Origin: a virus
Lineage: Duplodnaviria > Heunggongvirae > Uroviricota > Caudoviricetes
Direction: 5' to 3' (one strand)
Length of the DNA stretch: 16,930 nt
IMG/VR virus record: IMGVR_UViG_3300000279_000019
A program made the position numbers and the translations under genes. The notes beneath the pieces were generated by a model. The model was not told the DNA's origin and ran no database searches. It was given only the letters and a program-made list of their open reading frames with translations. Every line of letters starts with the position of its first letter. Position 1 is the first letter of the stretch. This document shows, piece by piece, positions 3,715-16,930 of the stretch.

Positions 3715-4296
3715 TTATCCCGTTTTAGTGACTAACCATTGCAGAATAACGATAATTAAATATGTTAATGTGCCAGTTCCAAGAAGTATTAATAATTGAT
3801 AGCAACGTAGGGCAATATTACTAATCGATTTTTGCATCACGATATTCACTGGCTCAGCCACACACTCTTTAGATCTTATCGATAGAATACTTGGAACTTC
3901 TCTATTTATTGATAATATTTCACATTGAATAGACTCACCAGGTGCAAGGCTTTCAAACTTGATAATATAGCGACCATCCTGTTCAATATTTTCTTCAAAA
4001 TGGTGGACAGGCCAAAAATTAATATGCATTGGCTTATAGTTAAAAACCAATGAGATATTAGTAGCACTTTCTCGCCCTTCATTAACAAGAATAATAGATC
4101 GTGTATACACCAACTGTGAATTAGATATTACCTCACCATTGGCATTCCGTAAGGGTTCATTGAGAAGAAAAGTAAATCCATGCTGATAACCATAGGATAA
4201 CTTTGCCTTGCTTTTAAATCTGTTATTCAGTATCCATGTTAAAATCGTTATAAAAAAAGAAAATAGTTCTTTCCCATAAAGACTAAAAAAACTCAT
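3715..4296 (-). CDS. Hypothetical membrane protein (193 aa) with N- and C-terminal hydrophobic helices, AT-rich cargo
   Basis: GAAGGA SD 6 nt before ATG 4296 (GTG at 4299 also in frame); hydrophobic stretches FSFFITILTWIL and LLILLGTGTLTYLIIVILQWLV flank a roughly 140-aa soluble domain; AT-rich like the 532-aa gene. Confidence 0.65.
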   Translation of the reverse strand: MSFFSLYGKELFSFFITILTWILNNRFKSKAKLSYGYQHGFTFLLNEPLRNANGEVISNSQLVYTRSIILVNEGRESATNISLVFNYKPMHINFWPVHHFEENIEQDGRYIIKFESLAPGESIQCEILSINREVPSILSIRSKECVAEPVNIVMQKSISNIALRCYQLLILLGTGTLTYLIIVILQWLVTKTG

Positions 4297-4430
4297 CACA
4301 CATTTCCTTCAGTAATCTGATTCTGCTGTCAAAGCTACCAGCACTATAGTCATTCATCCACATTGCGACAAGAAGGTTACAGCACGTCCAATCACACCTT
4401 AGGAAATCTTAGGGGGCTGGTTGACACTTT

Positions 4431-4687
4431 CCGGCTTAAGACCTTAATAAATCTTAATATCGCAGGTTGACACACTTGACACTTTTTCGCGAAAAACCTT
4501 AGCATTTCTAAGCATGGCAACTTGACATTTTTCGCGGTTTTTTCGGCTTTTTGACGTGGTAAATCTGGCACAAACCCAGTAATTGCGGGGCTTACAGCGA
4601 GGTTGACACTTTTTCGCGTTCAGAGTGTAAAGTGTCAACCTGGCAAGCTGTCAACCTGGCAAGCTGGCAAGCTGCTCAACTTGACAC
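4431..4687. repeat. Array of TTGACAC(TTTTTCGCG) repeats with a tandem 16-bp repeat; candidate binding-site array (packaging recognition or regulation)
   Basis: TTGACAC at 4431, 4467, 4476, 4603, 4681; TTGACATTTTTCGCG at 4522; TTGACG at 4551; inverted GTGTCAA at 4633; tandem gtcaacctggcaagct at 4634-4649 and 4650-4665 plus a partial third copy. No credible ORF spans it. Confidence 0.6.
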
Positions 4688-4696
4688 TTTTTGATG

Positions 4697-5224
4697 TCAT
4701 TGATGGTCTGATTTTTCCCACTCAGCCAGGGCGTTTAACCCGGCTTCACTCCATGATTCCGGTTCATCGGGATAATCACCTGCAACATAGCAGAGTTCGC
4801 AACGCAGCATACGAATTGCCAGCCTGGCATTACCTCGCAAATTGTATTTTTCAAAGTAATGCTGCCCTTCATCATCCTCAAGGCAGATAGCACCATCATC
4901 AAGAAAGTGCACTTCCCAGCCTAATTCCCCGGCTGCATACAGCACACGCTGCTGTATGCCCTCGTCCGTTACTGGCGCAGGAATTTTACCGTCTCTGGCC
5001 TTAACTGCTTTCCAGAACTCGCCCCATGTCATTTCCAGCGTTCTTTCTGGCCACATTTCAGAAATGGTGCCTTTCCCCTGTGCTGGTGGGCTGTTCCGCT
5101 GCTCTGTCGCTTCCACATCAATTTTTTTACCGGACATGACCACTTCGCCTTTCTCGAGCCAGTCGTAAACTGTCTGGCGGCTTACGCCTTTGTATTTGGC
5201 GTATTCGGCTTTACTCATCAACAT
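4697..5224 (-). CDS. DNA-binding protein with N-terminal lambda Nu1-like (terminase small subunit-type) winged HTH; possible packaging-redirection or regulatory protein
   Basis: GAGGTGA SD 5 nt upstream of ATG 5224; N-terminus SKAEYAKYKGVSRQTVYDWLEKGEV closely parallels Nu1 KKQLADIFGASIRTIQNWQEQGMPV; acidic C-terminal half. Confidence 0.55.
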   Translation of the reverse strand: MLMSKAEYAKYKGVSRQTVYDWLEKGEVVMSGKKIDVEATEQRNSPPAQGKGTISEMWPERTLEMTWGEFWKAVKARDGKIPAPVTDEGIQQRVLYAAGELGWEVHFLDDGAICLEDDEGQHYFEKYNLRGNARLAIRMLRCELCYVAGDYPDEPESWSEAGLNALAEWEKSDHQ

Positions 5225-5323
5225 GTAGCTCACCTCATGCATATACGATAAAAAATAATTTCATGCGGAAAGGGAATGCGTTGTGGGTATGGAGGAAAGG
5301 GGCAATAACCGCCCCTTACTGAT

Positions 5324-7703: not shown

Positions 7704-7991
7704 TTACTGACTACAATTGTTCTTTTTTTGGTATTTCCTGAATGCCTCACCATTGGGCTGATGTAATCCCATCCCGGCATGTGCCCGGCTGATGGTTTCG
7801 CGCATCTCCCCGAAATTATCCTGCCTTGCTGGTGGGCGTGCTGCCTTGTGGATACATTCCGCGCGACGTTTTGCCGCCTGTTCCCGTGCCTTGTCATCAT
7901 TCGCCAGCATGATGACCTCAGCCCACCGCGCCGCCGCTCTCCGGTACAGACCACGCGCTTCCAGTGCTTCCGCTTTGCTGTCGTGAATCAT
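7704..7991 (-). CDS. PerC-like small transcriptional regulator (95 aa)
   Basis: ATG 7991, 4-nt overlap with the FinO-like gene stop; segment AEALEARGLYRRAAARW and C-terminal MGLHQPNGEAFRKYQKK resemble what I recall of the PerC/Pch family; assignment from memory only. Confidence 0.5.
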   Translation of the reverse strand: MIHDSKAEALEARGLYRRAAARWAEVIMLANDDKAREQAAKRRAECIHKAARPPARQDNFGEMRETISRAHAGMGLHQPNGEAFRKYQKKNNCSQ

Positions 7992-8530
7992 GCGCCTATT
8001 GTCTCCTTTGCTGCCCGGCGCTGGCGTTTGCGCTTCTCATTCAGCGCCACCAGCCGCGTTTCTGCGTCCTGTTGTTCCTGTGGTGTCACCTCGCCGCACG
8101 GCTGGCCTTTCAGGTCGTAGCGTACCCCACCAGCCATTAAGGCGCGGTAATAGCGCGGACACTGCGCATAAGATGCCAGCGTCGCACGCAATGCCCCTGG
8201 CCCGAATGCCAGCCCCCTGACGGCGAGATCCTGCATCAGGTCGTCGAATATCCCCACCTTAAGCGGCTTCAGTGCTTCCCGGCTGAATAAGTCAGGCCAC
8301 AACTCAGTGAGGCGGTTAACGCGCCTGCGGTTTTTGCGCTGGCGTTTGGTCATATGCCGCCACGGTGTCGCCCCTGTAGGCTTCTGCTGCGCTTTCTGGT
8401 TACCGGGCATCACTTTATGCGCCGATGTGGTTTTATCCTGCTCCTGTGCCGCCTGCGTCGTTTTCTGCGGCGTGCCGTAAATACCTTTTGGTTTTCTGTT
8501 AATGGTCAGCTTAGTCATGCTTTGCCCCAT
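7988..8530 (-). CDS. FinO/ProQ-domain RNA-binding protein (180 aa) with basic N-terminal extension
   Basis: Segment LTELWPDLFSREALKPLKVGIFDDLMQDL...LRATLASYAQCPRYYRALMAGGVRYDLKGQPCGEVTPQE aligns by eye with the ProQ N-terminal domain (LAERFPHCFS..ARPLKIGIFQDL...LRSALRLYTSSWRYL...RVDLDGNPCGELDEQ); alternative start ATG 8518. Confidence 0.7.
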   Translation of the reverse strand: MGQSMTKLTINRKPKGIYGTPQKTTQAAQEQDKTTSAHKVMPGNQKAQQKPTGATPWRHMTKRQRKNRRRVNRLTELWPDLFSREALKPLKVGIFDDLMQDLAVRGLAFGPGALRATLASYAQCPRYYRALMAGGVRYDLKGQPCGEVTPQEQQDAETRLVALNEKRKRQRRAAKETIGA

Positions 8531-8539
8531 CGTTACAAC

Positions 8540-8874
8540 TGTCTACCAACTGTCTACCGATATAATTGATTGATTTATTTAATGTTATTAACACATAACA
8601 AAAAAACAATCTGCAAACTGTCTACCAACGGTCTACCGCATTAATACATTGATAATTAATGATTTTTACTAAATGGTAGACAGTGTAGACAGTTAAAAGA
8701 GAAATTTAAAAAATGCCCCCTTAACTATCTGTTTTTTATATACCCCCCGTGGTTTAGGAATATAGAAATAACTGTCTACCTCTCTACCACATTGAAAATA
8801 TCTTTATAATTCAAAATATTAATTGGTAGATGGTTGGTAGAGGGTTAAGTGAATCTGTCTACCAACCGTCTACC
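8540..8874. repeat. Origin of replication: iteron array of (T)GTCTACC octamers in both orientations with an AT-rich spacer
   Basis: TGTCTACC at 8540, 8551, 8619, 8773, 8856; GTCTACC at 8631, 8868; inverted GGTAGACA/GTAGACA at 8675, 8685; GGTAGA at 8825, 8836; pairs spaced 11 bp; AT-rich block 8560-8615; lies directly 3' of the primase gene. Confidence 0.7.
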
Positions 8875-8901
8875 TTTACGTTTCAGCTTATAAATTTCGT
8901 A

Positions 8902-10707
8902 TTATGTTCTGTCGTTAATCCCTGTAGCTGCTGGCAACCAGCCATCAGCATCATCATCTAACAGAACATTTGTTATCACTCGCCCTTTATCCGGGCCTTT
9001 AGTGCATTTAGCCCGCTTATACTCCTTTCCGTATTCCGCCATAGCTCCTGGCATATCAGTACCAAAGCGTGTCAGTGATACTGGTTTTCCCAGGCCATGC
9101 GCTGACATATAGGCTAAATAAGCATGATACAGGTATCGCCTCGGGCTAAATGGCACTATTTCCGCATTGCCCACCATCATTCCTTCACATTTAACCAACG
9201 ACATCAGATAGCCGCAAAAGTCCACCAGTGAATCACCTTCGCGCTTTATCAACAGCGCTTCTTCTGATTTTTGCTGCTCATAAAGTAGTCTTTTAGCTTC
9301 GTCCTGGTCGGTAAATCGTGTTAGCAAATGGCGAATCACTACCGCCAGTTCGCCTTCTATCTTTTCCGCCAGCATGGGATCGCGTTCGTTCTCCGGTACG
9401 ACCTCAGAGAAATTAAATATCACCCTACGACGCGAGATCCCCCCGCTTCGGTCACTGAATGACATGGCGTTATTGTTTACCGCAAGCACTACTGCCGGAA
9501 TACGTGTGGAGTAGGGGGCTTTATGTTTCGGATCAATTGCCACCTTGTCGCCGCCAGTAATTGCCTTAATTCCTGCACCATCGCCAGCGTAGCGAGTCAT
9601 ATCCGGCATGATAATCAGCGAAAAGCCAACTACTAACGCGCGTTCCCTTGCGTCTTCCAGAGCCTTCATGCTTGCCGATACTGTGTTGGCCTTACCCGCC
9701 AGCATGGTACAAATCTCAGCCATCACACTTTTACCGCTTCCGCCTGGGCCTGTTACCTCAAGGAATAACTGCCAGTCGTACCGGTTCGCCAGCACCATGA
9801 ATAATGCCGCCAGTACGCGATCAGCTTTACGATCATTATCTGCCACCGAACGACGCAGCCACTTCCAGAAATTCGGCGCATGTGTTGCCAGCGTTTCCCC
9901 CTCTGCTGGTGGGCTGAACGGTAATTCACTGGCATTTAACAACCAGTCATTTTTGTTATGCTCCCGAAAATTTCCCGTCCGGGTATCAAATACCCCGTTA
10001 CTGAATCCAATAAGATTCCTGTCTGCCCCGCCCATAACAGGCAGGCTCAATTTCATTGTGTCTACGGCAAATTTAATGGCGTTTTGCGAATAACTGATTC
10101 CAGCATCAATAAAAATCTTCGCCATAGACCGCTGGAGTTCCTTATCAGATACAGGCACCCAGACAATTCCGTTGTAATGGTGAACTACATCAGAATCATC
10201 ATTTATAGCCAGTGCTCTTCCATAATATTCAAGTAACACTTCCCCTCTCTGGCTGGCTCCCATCTGATTTAGTGCTGGCCTGGATAGGTCAATATTTTTT
10301 GTGGCTAATTTCATCGCTGAAACTTCCCCACTCTCTGCCTGTTCGCGGATCCGTTGCAGGTAGTCGCGCCAGTTTTCCGGCTCCCGGTCGGTGATACCTT
10401 TGTATAATTTCGCGTCCTGTACACCAGCCAGCGCCAGCTTTTCAGCAATAGCATTGATCTGGATTGGCTCTATCTCCCCCGCGAGATAGACACGCGCAAA
10501 GCGGCGTTCATCGTCGACAATGCGGATATTCGCCAGGTCTGCCAGTTGCTTTGGCCCCAGGTAAACAGGAGGCACGTTATCGCCGTGTTTTCGTCCTTCG
10601 CTTTCAATCCAGTGTTGAGCATGGGCGTAAGCATCCGTCCCGGCAAAAATGATTACCTCGGTGAATTTATCCTTCGGCTGATATTTTAAATTCGGTGCGT
10701 TTTTCAC
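8902..10707 (-). CDS. P4 alpha-like primase/helicase (601 aa)
   Basis: GTG start with GGAGG SD 6 nt upstream; Walker A GPGGSGKS; D5_N-like FSNGVFDTRTG motif; general architecture typical of phage/plasmid P4-family primases; iterons immediately downstream. Confidence 0.85.
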   Translation of the reverse strand: MKNAPNLKYQPKDKFTEVIIFAGTDAYAHAQHWIESEGRKHGDNVPPVYLGPKQLADLANIRIVDDERRFARVYLAGEIEPIQINAIAEKLALAGVQDAKLYKGITDREPENWRDYLQRIREQAESGEVSAMKLATKNIDLSRPALNQMGASQRGEVLLEYYGRALAINDDSDVVHHYNGIVWVPVSDKELQRSMAKIFIDAGISYSQNAIKFAVDTMKLSLPVMGGADRNLIGFSNGVFDTRTGNFREHNKNDWLLNASELPFSPPAEGETLATHAPNFWKWLRRSVADNDRKADRVLAALFMVLANRYDWQLFLEVTGPGGSGKSVMAEICTMLAGKANTVSASMKALEDARERALVVGFSLIIMPDMTRYAGDGAGIKAITGGDKVAIDPKHKAPYSTRIPAVVLAVNNNAMSFSDRSGGISRRRVIFNFSEVVPENERDPMLAEKIEGELAVVIRHLLTRFTDQDEAKRLLYEQQKSEEALLIKREGDSLVDFCGYLMSLVKCEGMMVGNAEIVPFSPRRYLYHAYLAYMSAHGLGKPVSLTRFGTDMPGAMAEYGKEYKRAKCTKGPDKGRVITNVLLDDDADGWLPAATGINDRT

Positions 10708-10994
10708 TTCTTACCTCCCGCAACCAACATTGCCCGGATTTTTTTAATATTCGTGGCTGCACGTCTCGCCACTGCCTGTTGTTTGTTTTCCACCAGAATA
10801 AAATCACGCTCAAACTGACGGCGCGGCATTACGCAGTCATATTCGTAAGCCTCACGGCGGTAGGTGATATTGCCTGGCGTAACGTGACGAATAACCACTC
10901 GTCCCCCACGTCTGGTGTCGCGGTAAATATCTCCGTGTCTGATTTCAGGCCGAGAGAGACCGCTGGCAGTAAAGCCAGAATTTTTCCTTTTCAT
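10704..10994 (-). CDS. Hypothetical basic protein (96 aa), last small ORF before primase
   Basis: ATG 10994 with AGGAAAA SD; stop overlaps the primase GTG (GTGA coupling); Arg/Lys-rich. Confidence 0.5.
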   Translation of the reverse strand: MKRKNSGFTASGLSRPEIRHGDIYRDTRRGGRVVIRHVTPGNITYRREAYEYDCVMPRRQFERDFILVENKQQAVARRAATNIKKIRAMLVAGGKK

Positions 10995-11783: not shown

Positions 11784-12000
11784 GGTGCACCTCCTGTACA
11801 TCAGCCATGATAATTTTTCCGGCCTTATCCAGTGCCTGATCGGCTTTCAGCTGCACAAATGCTAAATAATGGGAGATGCATTCTGATTCTCTGGCTGCGT
11901 GTTTATGCGCCACACCAGCGATAGCAGAAATCTCAATAAGTGAATCCATCAGCGTTTTGATAGCGTCTACCGCTGCATCAGGCCATGTTGCATTACACAT
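11776..12000 (-). CDS. Hypothetical protein (74 aa)
   Basis: ATG 12000 in an ATGTGTAA overlap with the upstream gene stop; coupled to the next gene by ATGCATAA. Confidence 0.5.
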   Translation of the reverse strand: MCNATWPDAAVDAIKTLMDSLIEISAIAGVAHKHAARESECISHYLAFVQLKADQALDKAGKIIMADVQEVHHA

Positions 12001-12358
12001 GCTCCACCTCCTGGCGAATACGGGCAGCGAATACCATCACGCAGCCATCAGGAGATTGCTGGCGTGCTTCCTGTTCGCTGGTGGCCTCGATGTGAATCAC
12101 GCGCGGTTGTGCCGTACTCAGGGCGATAAAACGCCAGATAAAATTGTTTTCGCATTTCTGAATAAACAACGTGTTTTCTTCGCGCCCTTTCCATGTTGCC
12201 GAGATATAGCCCATGTCATTGAGCATCTCGCAGGCATCAACCAGCGTATCGGCGGCTACATGAACAGTGTTTTTACCGTCAGCCATGCAATCACGGTGCA
12301 CCGCCAGGAAGGTGTATATAAATTTAGGGTGAGTTTGGGTATGCTGTGCCCCAGCCAT
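11993..12358 (-). CDS. Hypothetical protein (121 aa), first gene of the replication operon
   Basis: ATG 12358 with GAGGT SD about 5 nt upstream, located at the C-terminal end of a 512-aa open frame whose upstream part I consider spurious; product MAGAQHTQTHPKFIYTFLAVHRD... Confidence 0.5.
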   Translation of the reverse strand: MAGAQHTQTHPKFIYTFLAVHRDCMADGKNTVHVAADTLVDACEMLNDMGYISATWKGREENTLFIQKCENNFIWRFIALSTAQPRVIHIEATSEQEARQQSPDGCVMVFAARIRQEVEHV

Positions 12359-12447
12359 AATCGTTACCTCATTTAACGGTTTGGTTAGACGCCCCGCTAC
12401 TGCCGCAAACAGTTCGGGGCGTTGTCGTTTATATCCTCTTACTGAGG

Positions 12448-12523
12448 TGTGATTTAAATTAAATTTAACTGAATCACAGGTCAAGTATTTTTTGTGATTC
12501 TTTTTTGTGTATACTGAATCACA
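12448..12523. promoter_or_regulatory. Two dyad-symmetric operators TGTGATT-N17-AATCACA in the divergent promoter region
   Basis: TGTGATT 12448-12454 / AATCACA 12472-12478 and TGTGATT 12493-12499 / AATCACA 12517-12523, 45 bp centre to centre; TATACT -10-like hexamer at 12510-12515; sits between the divergent RHH-like gene and the replication operon. Confidence 0.55.
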
Positions 12524-12545
12524 TCTTTTGTTTAGGAGAATGCAC

Positions 12546-12851
12546 ATGGCAAAAAACACTATCAACGACAAATCAAAACAGATTTCAATTCGTATCCCAC
12601 ATGATGCTTTTGAAGGCATGGAATCCGTAAAACTGGACGGCGAAAGCAACGCCGGATTCATAGTAACCGCCATGCGTGGTGAGATCGCCCGCCGCCAGGC
12701 AGAAGGAAGCGGAGAAAATCCCCTAGTTTCTTCGCTCAATGCACTGGCGCAGGTGGAAAAAATCGGAGTCAAAGCTGTCGAGGAGATCGGGCAGCTCGTC
12801 ACCGTCGCACGTGAAGAACTCCAGCGCCGCAAGGCCAAAGAATCAGAATAA
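12546..12851 (+). CDS. Putative ribbon-helix-helix-type transcriptional regulator (101 aa), candidate master repressor of the element
   Basis: AGGAG SD 8 nt upstream of ATG 12546; N-terminal KQISIRIPHDAFEGM resembles an RHH beta-strand/helix start; only plus-strand gene here, divergent from the replication operon and adjacent to the dyad operators. Confidence 0.55.
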   Translation: MAKNTINDKSKQISIRIPHDAFEGMESVKLDGESNAGFIVTAMRGEIARRQAEGSGENPLVSSLNALAQVEKIGVKAVEEIGQLVTVAREELQRRKAKESE

Positions 12852-13523
12852 TAACTATCATCGCCGTGGTGTGAGGAACTCCGGCGCATTGCTTTACAGG
12901 TACACAGAATGACCAACAAAGAATCGACCAATACACCATCACCGGCACGGAAAAGACAGCGCAGAAAGATAGCGTACGAATATGAGTCAGACAGATTCGC
13001 GCCCTGTGCGTTTATCCTTGAGAAATTCCTTAAAGAGTACAGGCGCACAAAAATGGGGTCGCATACCTGGAAAACATCGCGGCATGGCAATGTTAAAGAG
13101 CAGGAATAGCCCACCAGCAAGCCAGCACACTGATCACATTGCCCACCAGCCGCAAATCTGGCATTGTTGGCGATGTGTTCAAGTGTGTAGCTTTCCCACT
13201 GGTGGCCCTCTGCGGTCGCCTTTGTTTTATCCAGAACGAAATTAGACATCAGATTGATCATCACCTTGCGACCTGACAAAATCGCATCAGTCGCGCCACC
13301 AGCAAAATTTTTTGCTTTCCGGACAGCGTGACCAACGACATTTTGCAGCAAAATATTCTGCATTTCTGGCGTGCTGTAGTAACGGTGATCAGCGCCTTCA
13401 CTCTGTGCGACCACAACGCTATAATCTGCCTCGTAGACAGTAAGCAATATGGCGCAGTAGGCTATTCGTTCACAAAGGCGCTCCGGCAACGGGGCGCTTT
13501 CTCTTTTTGTAACGGTCAGAGCG

Positions 13524-14372
13524 TTACACATGGCTGTTTTCCTCCATGCGACGGGCTAACCAACGCTGCGAAAGACGAATTAATTCAGCTTTCCGCTGGT
13601 GGTAGTCCAGGCCTAACTCAATCAGCGTGATATTGCTCTGCTCAAGGTAAGAAAGGTGCTCAAGCTGCAACGTGCTCATGTGGTCGCGTGGTTCGCCTGT
13701 GATGCCGTTCGCCTGCGTCCACTGTTTTGCAGTCATGCCACCCAGCACGATACGCGCCAGCATATTGGCTTCCGTGGTGTAGTGGTGCTGGAGTGTGTTT
13801 TTACCCAGTTCAGCCCGGTACGCCTCCAGCGCGGCACACATCGGCTTAAAGTAGCTGGCAACGGAGATACGGGCTTTCAGTTCCCGGCGTAACGCTGCGG
13901 AACGCACTGGCGCTACCTTGTGTAGCTCCTCCTCGCATTTGATGAAGTACTGACGAACGGCGCGGCCCTGTTCGGTGCGCTCGACCATCGCCAGTTCTTT
14001 CGCCATGTTCGTGGAGATCAAATAGTCTTCACTGCGACGATCACCGCCGCGCTTTGTTGTCCAATCAAAATCAAACTGTTCAATATTTACACTTTGGTTC
14101 CCCCGTTTCGGGGAATCAAAGTACAAATTATCTACAACTTCAAAATCCACGCCCTTTTTAAATCCGTACTCATCAATGCGTCCTTTAATCCAGGTTGTGA
14201 AATCACGCTTCACACCCAGCGCCTTATGCAACGCTCTGGCGCTAACAATATTGGTTTCACGTCCGCCAATAACGCCGGAAATAACCGGGATAATTTCGCC
14301 GAAATTTTGCAGATTCTGGTTTTCAGGCCGAACGAAGCCCTGCCCCTGTACGGGCGTTTTTCGCTGTTTCAT
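13524..14372 (-). CDS. AntA/AntB-type antirepressor-like protein (282 aa)
   Basis: ATG 14372 with AGGAG SD; segment IIPVISGVIGGRETNIVSARALHKALGVKRDFTTWIKGRIDEYGFKKGVDFEV and later MAKELAMVERTEQGRAVRQYFIKCEE match the AntA-family pattern as I recall it. Confidence 0.65.
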   Translation of the reverse strand: MKQRKTPVQGQGFVRPENQNLQNFGEIIPVISGVIGGRETNIVSARALHKALGVKRDFTTWIKGRIDEYGFKKGVDFEVVDNLYFDSPKRGNQSVNIEQFDFDWTTKRGGDRRSEDYLISTNMAKELAMVERTEQGRAVRQYFIKCEEELHKVAPVRSAALRRELKARISVASYFKPMCAALEAYRAELGKNTLQHHYTTEANMLARIVLGGMTAKQWTQANGITGEPRDHMSTLQLEHLSYLEQSNITLIELGLDYHQRKAELIRLSQRWLARRMEENSHV

Positions 14373-14450: not shown

Positions 14451-14648
14451 TCAGGTAGCTGTTCCGCGTGATTCCGCAATACGCTGATTAATCCACTCGT
14501 CAATTTCACTCTCAACGAAAGCAATAGCTCGCGAGCCAATTTTAACTGATGCAGGAAATTTACCTTGCCCCATAAGGCGATAAATCCATGCCTTGCTATA
14601 TCCAGTTCTACGCTGAACTTCCGTTAAACGAATAAGAGAGTTTGCCAT
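14451..14648 (-). CDS. alpA: AlpA-family regulator / excisionase (65 aa)
   Basis: AAGGTGA SD; LIRLTEVQRRTGYSKAWIYRLMGQGKFP...VESEIDEWINQR aligns with E. coli AlpA ILRLPAVIQKTGMARATIYDWL...IEAEIDEWLSQR. Confidence 0.8.
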   Translation of the reverse strand: MANSLIRLTEVQRRTGYSKAWIYRLMGQGKFPASVKIGSRAIAFVESEIDEWINQRIAESRGTAT

Positions 14649-15718: not shown

Positions 15719-16930
15719 TCACCCGCATTTTCCGAACTCACCATGCACCACATTTCCGCCATGCTCGAGCGAATCCATATAGTCGGCATACCACTGGAGC
15801 ATCTCCCGGCGACCATCCAGATATTGCGCATGGTTGTATGTGCCACGAATTGAGTTTTTATCGACGTGTGCGAGCTGTGTCTCTATCCACGCGGTGTTAT
15901 AGCCCTGCTCATGCAAAATGGTGCTCATGGTGTGCCGGAATCCATGACCAGTAACCTTTCCGTTATAGCCGATGCGTTTAAATACTTGGTTTATGCTAGC
16001 CTCGCTCATTGTTTTCCTTGGATCATTACGGCCGGGAAACATAAGCGGATAATTGCCAGTTAATTCTTTAATCTGCCCAATAAGCGAAAGAGCCTGCTTA
16101 GACAAAGGCACCACATGAGGGCGACGCATTTTCATCCGTGAAGCAGGTATCTCCCAGATAGCCTTGTTGAGATCGATTTCATCCCATAATGCACCGCGCA
16201 GTTCGCCAGTCCGCAAACCGGTGATAATCAGTAGACGAGCCGCCATAACAACCAATGCACTTCCTGAGTAACTGGACAATGCCTTGAAAAAATCAGGTAA
16301 TTCTTTGGCTGTGAGGAAAGGATAATGATTAGATTCATGACCTTGCATCGCGCTGGTGAGATCCGGTGCAGGGTTATACTCAGCACGTCCAGTGACAATT
16401 GCATAGCGGAAAACTTCCCCGCATCGCTGCCTCACTTTTTTGGCTTTTTCGGTAGCACCGCGCCCCTCGATGCGCCGCAGCACATTCAGCAGTTCAAGTG
16501 GTTTGATTTCGGCGATTGGTTTTTTGCCAATGTAAGGGAACACATCTTTGTTGAAGGCTTCGAGGATGTCTGAAGCATAACCAGCAGACCATTTTTTTAA
16601 TTTGCTGCTGTGCCACTCAAGGGCAATATCTTTGAAGGTGCTGTTTAACTGCGTTTCCCGGGCAATCTTTTCCTCTCGTTTCGCTTCCATCGGATCGATA
16701 CCCCCAGCGATCCCCCTTTTAGCTTCTTCACGTTTTGCACGAGCATCAGCCAAGGTAACTTCAGGATACACACCTAGTGCTAACAGCTTCTCTTTACCAG
16801 CTACACGATATTTGAAGCGCCAATATTTTCCTCCACTAGGTTTTACCAAGAGATACAGACCACCACCATCAGCCAGCTTGTAAGCCTTCTCTTTTGGCTT
16901 GGCAGTGTCTATTTGACGGGCATTGAGTTT
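15719..16930 (-). CDS. int: Tyrosine integrase, P4-type (5' end runs off the window; start codon found at 45..43 in a circular reading)
   Basis: N-terminal KLNARQIDTAKPKEKAYKLADGGGLYLLVKPSGGKYWRFKYRVAGKEKLLALGVYPEVTLADAR is the conserved P4-integrase N-domain; C-terminal catalytic region with HGFRHT and LAHVD motifs and a tyrosine near the end; the track M at 16849 is an internal TTG. Confidence 0.9.
   Translation of the reverse strand, partial: KLNARQIDTAKPKEKAYKLADGGGLYLLVKPSGGKYWRFKYRVAGKEKLLALGVYPEVTLADARAKREEAKRGIAGGIDPMEAKREEKIARETQLNSTFKDIALEWHSSKLKKWSAGYASDILEAFNKDVFPYIGKKPIAEIKPLELLNVLRRIEGRGATEKAKKVRQRCGEVFRYAIVTGRAEYNPAPDLTSAMQGHESNHYPFLTAKELPDFFKALSSYSGSALVVMAARLLIITGLRTGELRGALWDEIDLNKAIWEIPASRMKMRRPHVVPLSKQALSLIGQIKELTGNYPLMFPGRNDPRKTMSEASINQVFKRIGYNGKVTGHGFRHTMSTILHEQGYNTAWIETQLAHVDKNSIRGTYNHAQYLDGRREMLQWYADYMDSLEHGGNVVHGEFGKCG
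16889..16930. repeat. Terminal direct repeat, copy 2 (identical to 1-42)
   Basis: Exact 42/42 identity with positions 1-42; repeat may extend beyond the window edge. Confidence 0.9.

Follow-up and report, generated by a model that had tools for sequence, protein, structure and literature searches.

Fillol-Salom et al. [quoted passage not shown] We mapped the inserts of these plasmids from the primers to the EcCICFT073 locus, which is L003 in our set of relatives. The pri-ori insert corresponded to L003 8738-10847 and the pri-delta-ori insert to L003 9045-10847, and the 307 bp deleted in the latter were the iteron region after pri. The intergenic stretch after pri carries 11 copies of NTCTACC (L003 8810-9033), and all 11 are contained in the deleted 307 bp. 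One of the primers, EcoCFT073-pri-4c (supplement of PMC6092414), contains GGTAGACAGGGTAGACAG, which was located in CFT073.

The other described system to which the present locus can be compared is P4. The P4 record annotates 'ori type 1 repeats', of which the sequence is TGTTCACC, extended to CTGTTCACC. The replication region of P4 is bipartite, with ori and crr about 4.5 kb apart. In the work of Flensburg and Calendar in 1987 and of Ziegelin et al. in 1993, P4 crr is reported to be needed in cis without being the place of initiation.

The DNA analysed here is a stretch of 16,930 bp, called the window below, and positions refer to it unless a locus is named. It contains a cluster of short repeats at 8541-8874, which is very probably the vegetative replication origin of a Gram-negative PICI integrated at thrW/proA. 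By analogy, we take it to be a further example of the kind of origin already demonstrated in EcCICFT073.

Gene order and distribution of the island

Nearly all long ORFs of the window are on the minus strand. The genes that define its context are listed below.

15719-16849, minus strand: tyrosine integrase (Pfam)
14451-14648, minus strand: AlpA, Phage_AlpA (Pfam)
13524-14372, minus strand: AntA (Pfam)
10704-10994, minus strand: DUF4222 (Pfam)
8902-10707, minus strand: alpha-like initiator gene ('Pri-Rep'), 601 aa (Pfam D5_N, DUF5906 and Pox_D5; PHROG 864)
7988-8530, minus strand: ProQ/FinO-family ORF (Pfam)
7704-7991, minus strand: PerC (Pfam)

The order on this one strand is int, AlpA, AntA, Icd-like, DUF4222, Pri-Rep, the repeats, ProQ and PerC. 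Thus int, alpA and pri-rep are followed by accessory genes such as perC, all in the same orientation, which is the context of a PICI. The parallel with EcCICFT073 holds gene for gene over int, alpA, the Icd-like gene, DUF4222, pri-rep, ori and perC, but the next genes in EcCICFT073 code for a hypothetical protein and SSB, whereas the window has ProQ/FinO. Because the gene order matches that of EcCICFT073 and the published PICI layout (PMC6092414), the element is identified, from its gene content, as a Gram-negative PICI of E. coli.

A P4 satellite was considered as another identity of the element and was rejected, since psu, sid and delta gave no hits in the scanned ORFs, there is just one iteron cluster and the primase domain of P4 is missing. 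The search for psu, sid, delta and epsilon covered 19 ORFs with Pfam and 10 ORFs with PHROGs, some small ORFs lying outside the scan, and none of the four gave a hit.

E. coli 537-20 has a region identical to that of the window, flanked by tRNA-Thr/proA on one side and by the pao genes on the other. The thrW/proA site is absent from the E. coli PICI sites in Table S1 of PMC6092414. When 8400-9000 (601 bp, including gene ends) was used as the query, 261 of 5,426 complete E. coli genomes gave a match, and all matches were on chromosomes. The origin region alone was matched in 122 of the 5,426 genomes. A phage database searched with 8400-9000 gave no match. The present assignment would locate the origin of an island that is widespread in E. 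coli. Considered purely as an origin, the region is ordinary.

In some genomes, up to five places matched 8400-9000, for example in NZ_CP122722.1 (ETEC1747). Such multiple matches suggest that several related islands are present per cell, and raise the question of cross-talk among their origins.

Within the island, the 512-aa ORF at 11993-13531 (minus strand) had no Pfam hit, and residues 441-512 alone matched PHROGs annotated as Icd-like or 'transcriptional repressor'. In the corresponding area, E. coli 537-20 is annotated with a partial Icd-like pseudogene and other small genes, and with a frameshifted AntA beyond them. Therefore, this is a variable part of the island.

Iterons and AT-rich spacers downstream of the initiator gene

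The region 8541-8874 is intergenic, between the stop of the 601-aa ORF (8902) and the start of the ProQ/FinO ORF. Read in the sense of these genes, the first iteron of the cluster lies 28 bp behind the stop of the 601-aa gene, and the last one is 11 bp short of the ProQ/FinO start. Exact GTCTACC occurs nine times in the window, and eight of the nine copies are within 8541-8874. The expected number is 0.65, and none of 200 dinucleotide-preserving shuffles of the whole window reached nine. The only copy outside the region (11965-11971, plus strand) is isolated inside a coding region and is probably there by chance. Four further copies with one mismatch bring the number in 8541-8874 to 12, and these are grouped as six pairs. 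The copies are phased by 11 bp in four of the pairs (A, B, E and F), and pairs C and E are inverted. The extended consensus of the iteron is (A)ACTGTCTACC(A). The G+C content of the region is 32-33%, versus 47-62% in the flanks, and the region has three AT-rich spacers bounded by iterons, each of which holds one of the least stable 30-mers of the window (ranks in the list).

8541-8558, plus strand: iteron pair A, GTCTACC twice (8541 and 8552), 11 bp apart; outer pair beside the ProQ start
8559-8619: AT-rich spacer 1; 4th least stable 30-mer; one IHF consensus match
8620-8637, plus strand: iteron pair B, GTCTACC twice (8620 and 8631), 11 bp apart; left arm of convergent module 1
8638-8674: AT-rich spacer 2, 37 bp, inside convergent module 1, from pair B to pair C; 10th least stable 30-mer; candidate unwinding site
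8675-8690, minus strand: iteron pair C, GTCTACC and GTCTACA (8675 and 8684), 9 bp apart; right arm of module 1
8691-8773: iteron-free centre, 83 bp, with two C-runs; the place of the >>> 30 <<< cluster in most relatives
8774-8788, plus strand: iteron pair D, GTCTACC and CTCTACC (8774 and 8782), 8 bp apart; left arm of module 2
8789-8824: AT-rich spacer 3, 36 bp, inside convergent module 2, from pair D to pair E; 2nd least stable 30-mer; candidate unwinding site
8825-8842, minus strand: iteron pair E, ATCTACC and CTCTACC (8825 and 8836), 11 bp apart; right arm of module 2
8857-8874, plus strand: iteron pair F, GTCTACC twice (8857 and 8868), 11 bp apart; outer pair, on the side of the initiator stop

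An earlier note on this DNA had counted about 12 copies of an octamer, several of them in pairs with 11-bp phasing and some inverted, in agreement with the 12 copies, four 11-bp pairs and two inverted pairs found here. It had also placed an AT-rich block directly downstream of a primase gene. The richness in A+T and the position of the cluster were borne out; the single block turned out to be three spacers, and the name 'primase' is doubtful because the zinc-ribbon/TOPRIM primase domain of P4 is missing from the protein.

The repeat statistics and the local instability of the DNA support the structure of an origin. As is characteristic of PICI origins, the cluster is directly 3' of pri-rep and its iteron pairs bracket AT-rich DNA. 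EcCICFT073 shares the immediate 3' location, the flanking of AT-rich DNA by sets of iterons and the iteron core NTCTACC; CTGTCTACC is visible in its primer EcoCFT073-pri-4c. No DnaA box was found in 8541-8874, and a scan of the whole window with Rfam returned no family, giving no support for an sRNA or a ProQ-partner RNA. The IHF consensus WATCAANNNNTTR has three matches in the whole window, of which two sit in origin spacers, at 8563-8575 and 8642-8654 (minus strand). These two matches are a weak hint, and in such AT-rich DNA they may be an effect of composition.

For comparison, we fetched 80 loci of relatives, with one genome per species. Most relatives with a short N-terminus (PICI-type), including EcCICFT073, showed a near-palindromic layout in the first 350 bp after the initiator stop: [>> 42 <] 22 [>>> 30 <<<] 22 [> 43 <<]. 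This layout was kept across genera and across three iteron sequences (L005, L008-L010, L013, L014, L019, L023, L030 and L003). Convergent modules, with 42-47 bp between the inward-facing iterons, are also present in the relatives. The layout of the window in gene sense is << 21 [>> 43 <<] 90 [>> 44 <<] 68 <<. It comprises two modules of convergent iterons 154 bp apart, the 83-bp iteron-free centre between them, and extra outer pairs. It differs from the common layout and from EcCICFT073 in having no central >>> 30 <<< cluster, and this speaks against the origin reading.

Six E. coli variants, with 91-95% identity to the window in the origin region, have the same six-pair layout. Among these six close variants, 15.5% of the iteron columns and 18.5% of the spacer columns were variable; the difference is not significant, and sequences of about 93% identity are too close to separate the two. 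In one of the six (L084, E. coli FDAARGOS_1058), three tandem 11-bp units are present where the window has two, at 8537-8558 (pair A), so that the copy number differs by exactly one unit. None of the relevant papers had the iteron strings in its text.

When compared with P4, the 9-bp iteron CTGTCTACC of the window differs from TGTTCACC solely by a swap of the central TC to CT. TTCACC does not occur in the 600 bp after the initiator gene of the window, where the iteron is TGTCTACC. Lying immediately 3' of the alpha gene, the cluster has the location of crr and not that of ori. Both crr, with two (>>> 42 <<), and the window have convergent iterons about 42 bp apart in two modules of direct repeats. 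P4 differs in that its crr is followed by a small hypothetical ORF and then by att and int, and in that ori is separate from crr, whereas the window has a single cluster. By position and module layout, then, the predicted counterpart of the cluster in P4 is crr, not ori. What is new here, as judged from sequence comparison, is that PICI origins are clearly akin to P4 crr, which would tie the two more closely than the literature does, where the homology is called distant.

These results bear on the remaining claims of the earlier note, which had described the region as an iteron origin with P4-like octamers. The two-base transposition relative to the P4 iteron is the TC-to-CT swap seen in comparison with the P4 record. 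Its proposal of a related but distinct alpha-type specificity gained support from the homology and the covariation described in the next section. The comparison with P4 ori and crr that it called for was carried out: the iterons are indeed related, the counterpart is crr instead of ori, and no second cluster was found. Its main reading, an iteron origin, was supported by homology, location, covariation and EcCICFT073; the element that carries it is a PICI and not a P4-like satellite.

Initiator protein and covariation with iteron type

The 601-aa protein consists of an N-terminal part of about 125 aa, D5_N (aa 156-285), an SF3 helicase P-loop domain (aa 319-427) and a C-terminal origin-binding domain. 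The ORF is intact, and its Walker A motif is GPGGSGKS. Residues 141-592 aligned with residues 322-769 of P4 alpha, that is, with its helicase and origin-binding parts, at 49% identity over 453 residues. The parts of the gene referred to below are as follows.

10333-10707, minus strand: N-terminal alpha/beta domain, aa 1-125, in place of the 320-aa primase domain of P4 alpha
8932-9237, minus strand: origin-binding domain, aa 491-592; phmmer match to PDB 1KA8, E=6.4e-19
8974-9018, minus strand: covarying segment K564-I578 (KRAKCTKGPDKGRVI), from the alignment with iteron types

The structure 1KA8 is the crystallised origin-binding domain of P4 alpha, which was described as a winged helix in its publication. 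The initiator of EcCICFT073 has the same three-part build as that of the window. The two proteins can be aligned over the full length, including the N-terminal domain, at 44% identity overall; for the body of the binding domain alone, the identity is 36%.

The N-terminal domain separates the protein from P4 alpha. Residues 1-140 gave no alignment to the 320-residue primase domain of P4 alpha, and the zinc-ribbon/TOPRIM primase domain (EGYATA motif) is absent from the 601-aa protein. The N-terminal domain matched nothing in Pfam or NCBIfam, and profile-profile comparison with P4-type primase domains was also negative. Its fold weakly resembles TOPRIM primase domains, and the canonical acidic residues are not conserved. 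Among the relatives, the core of helicase and binding domain bears three different N-termini: the one found here, a second one about 120 aa long, and the primase of the P4 type. The domain of aa 1-125 was also found fused to AAA_25/RepA-type helicases and to DUF927 proteins. It is a movable module. Going by the domain content, 'primase' is probably a misnomer for the 601-aa gene.

Every fetched locus with enough downstream DNA was enriched, in the 600 bp after the initiator stop, for one type of iteron of the form (C)TGTNNACC. Four types were distinguished: TGTTCACC, TGTCTACC, TCCACC and TGTCCGC. Most loci have the TGTTCACC type, as in P4; the TGTCTACC type is found in the window, in EcCICFT073 and in six others. 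The third type appears as (G)TCTCCACC or GTCCACC, and the fourth as CTGTCCGC.

When the C-terminal domains were aligned, nearly all of the domain was conserved except for a stretch of 10-15 residues that follows 'EYGKEY' and precedes a conserved [ST]N. This variable segment sorts perfectly with the iteron type, and the rest of the protein does not. The motifs of the segment are as follows.

TTCACC iterons: K[QHYLN]G[ILM]R
TCTACC iterons: KG[RV]xx, often with a CT[KR]GPD insertion
TCCACC iterons: [KR]GNxx
TGTCCGC iterons: RGRIQ

The domain of the window and those of TTCACC-type relatives were 82-86% identical outside K564-I578 and 13% identical inside it. Between the window and EcCICFT073, which has the CTAC-type iteron, the rest of the binding domain was 36% identical, and the KG[RV] motif was common to both. 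We consider this covariation to be the strongest in-silico evidence that the 601-aa protein would read these repeats, and it suggests that the K564-I578 region is the seat of iteron specificity. The finding that iteron types throughout the family go with a short segment of the protein appears to be new. The segment is, tentatively, probably the beta-hairpin 'wing' of the winged helix. This placement comes from a low-confidence AF2 model made from a shallow alignment, with pLDDT 50, and from the published winged-helix description of 1KA8.

Proposed origin function and rival explanations

The reading of 8541-8874 as an origin is supported because protein homology, conserved location, covariation of the segment with the iterons and the published function of EcCICFT073 all point to it. 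Sharing its position directly 3' of the alpha gene with P4 crr, and like crr made of two direct-repeat modules of convergent iterons, the cluster might also be a cis-acting enhancer, to which the protein binds while replication starts at a separate origin elsewhere. A scan that recovered the separate ori of P4 as a control, however, detected just the one iteron cluster in the 16.9-kb window and no further one in the PICI-type loci. In EcCICFT073, moreover, pri and the downstream 307 bp alone sufficed for plasmid maintenance at the restrictive temperature. A crr-like enhancer is thus improbable. Transcriptional control is another function that was considered, because pair A ends 11 bp upstream of the ProQ start codon and terminator prediction on the minus strand gave none behind the initiator gene. 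The cluster would then be an operator or promoter array for ProQ and PerC, bound by a transcription regulator or by an autoregulating alpha-like protein, and would have no origin function. Promoter-like sites, however, were not enriched in the region over shuffles (3 found, 1.8 expected), and the cluster follows alpha-like genes whatever comes next, as EcCICFT073 and P4 differ in this respect. The covariation of the repeats with the DNA-binding domain of the initiator also argues against such an array, which we regard as very improbable as the sole function; the cluster may have a regulatory role on the side.

Satellites do carry cos/pac sites of their helpers, and the initiator gene is truncated in some copies of this island family in E. 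coli. These facts would suit a site for packaging (cos/pac) or recombination, or a remnant that has decayed and now lacks a function. On the other side, no lambda-type cosN was found, the integrase gene is about 7 kb distant, the initiator ORF, Walker A motif included, is intact, and the six-pair layout is maintained among the E. coli variants. A packaging or recombination site or a remnant is hardly probable at all.

If the cluster is the origin, replication could proceed as follows. Upon induction by a helper phage, the island would express the 601-aa alpha-like protein, and its C-terminal winged-helix domain would bind the (C)TGTCTACC iterons. Pairs spaced by 11 bp would place two such domains on one face of the helix. 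At the 36-37-bp AT-rich spacers bracketed by the convergent pairs B/C and D/E, SF3 helicase rings would assemble and open the DNA; both the melting site and the order of these steps are proposals. Priming would probably be performed by host DnaG or a helper primase; an outside primase is proposed because the P4-type primase domain is absent.

More tentatively, the alpha-like initiators of P4-like satellites and of Gram-negative PICIs may constitute one family of mutually orthogonal initiator-iteron pairs, with at least four iteron types, in which the short hairpin before [ST]N would set the specificity and could be swapped independently of the rest. We put this forward as a possible view, short of a probable one. 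If it is true, co-resident satellites would avoid cross-talk in replication, and the recognition code would be small and engineerable. The island of the window would then represent a variant form, in which unwinding takes place at two modules and the initiator has lost primase activity, so that a primase of the host or helper is needed. The covariation itself provides a testable idea of how origin specificity changes, and bears on the compatibility of co-resident satellites and on orthogonal replicons.

An unrelated cluster of repeats was noticed at 4396-4696, between the ORFs at 3715-4299 and 4697-5242 (both minus strand). It contains about seven copies of (G)GTTGACAC(TTTTTCGCG) on both strands, three copies of ACCTTAGGAAATCTTA spaced by 45-55 bp, and, at 4633-4672, an 8-bp tandem repeat of TGGCAAGC/TGTCAACC. 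The ORF at 4697-5242 matched HTH_17 and, weakly, the N-terminal part of small terminase subunits. The cluster at 4396-4696 may be a site for packaging or an array for a regulator.
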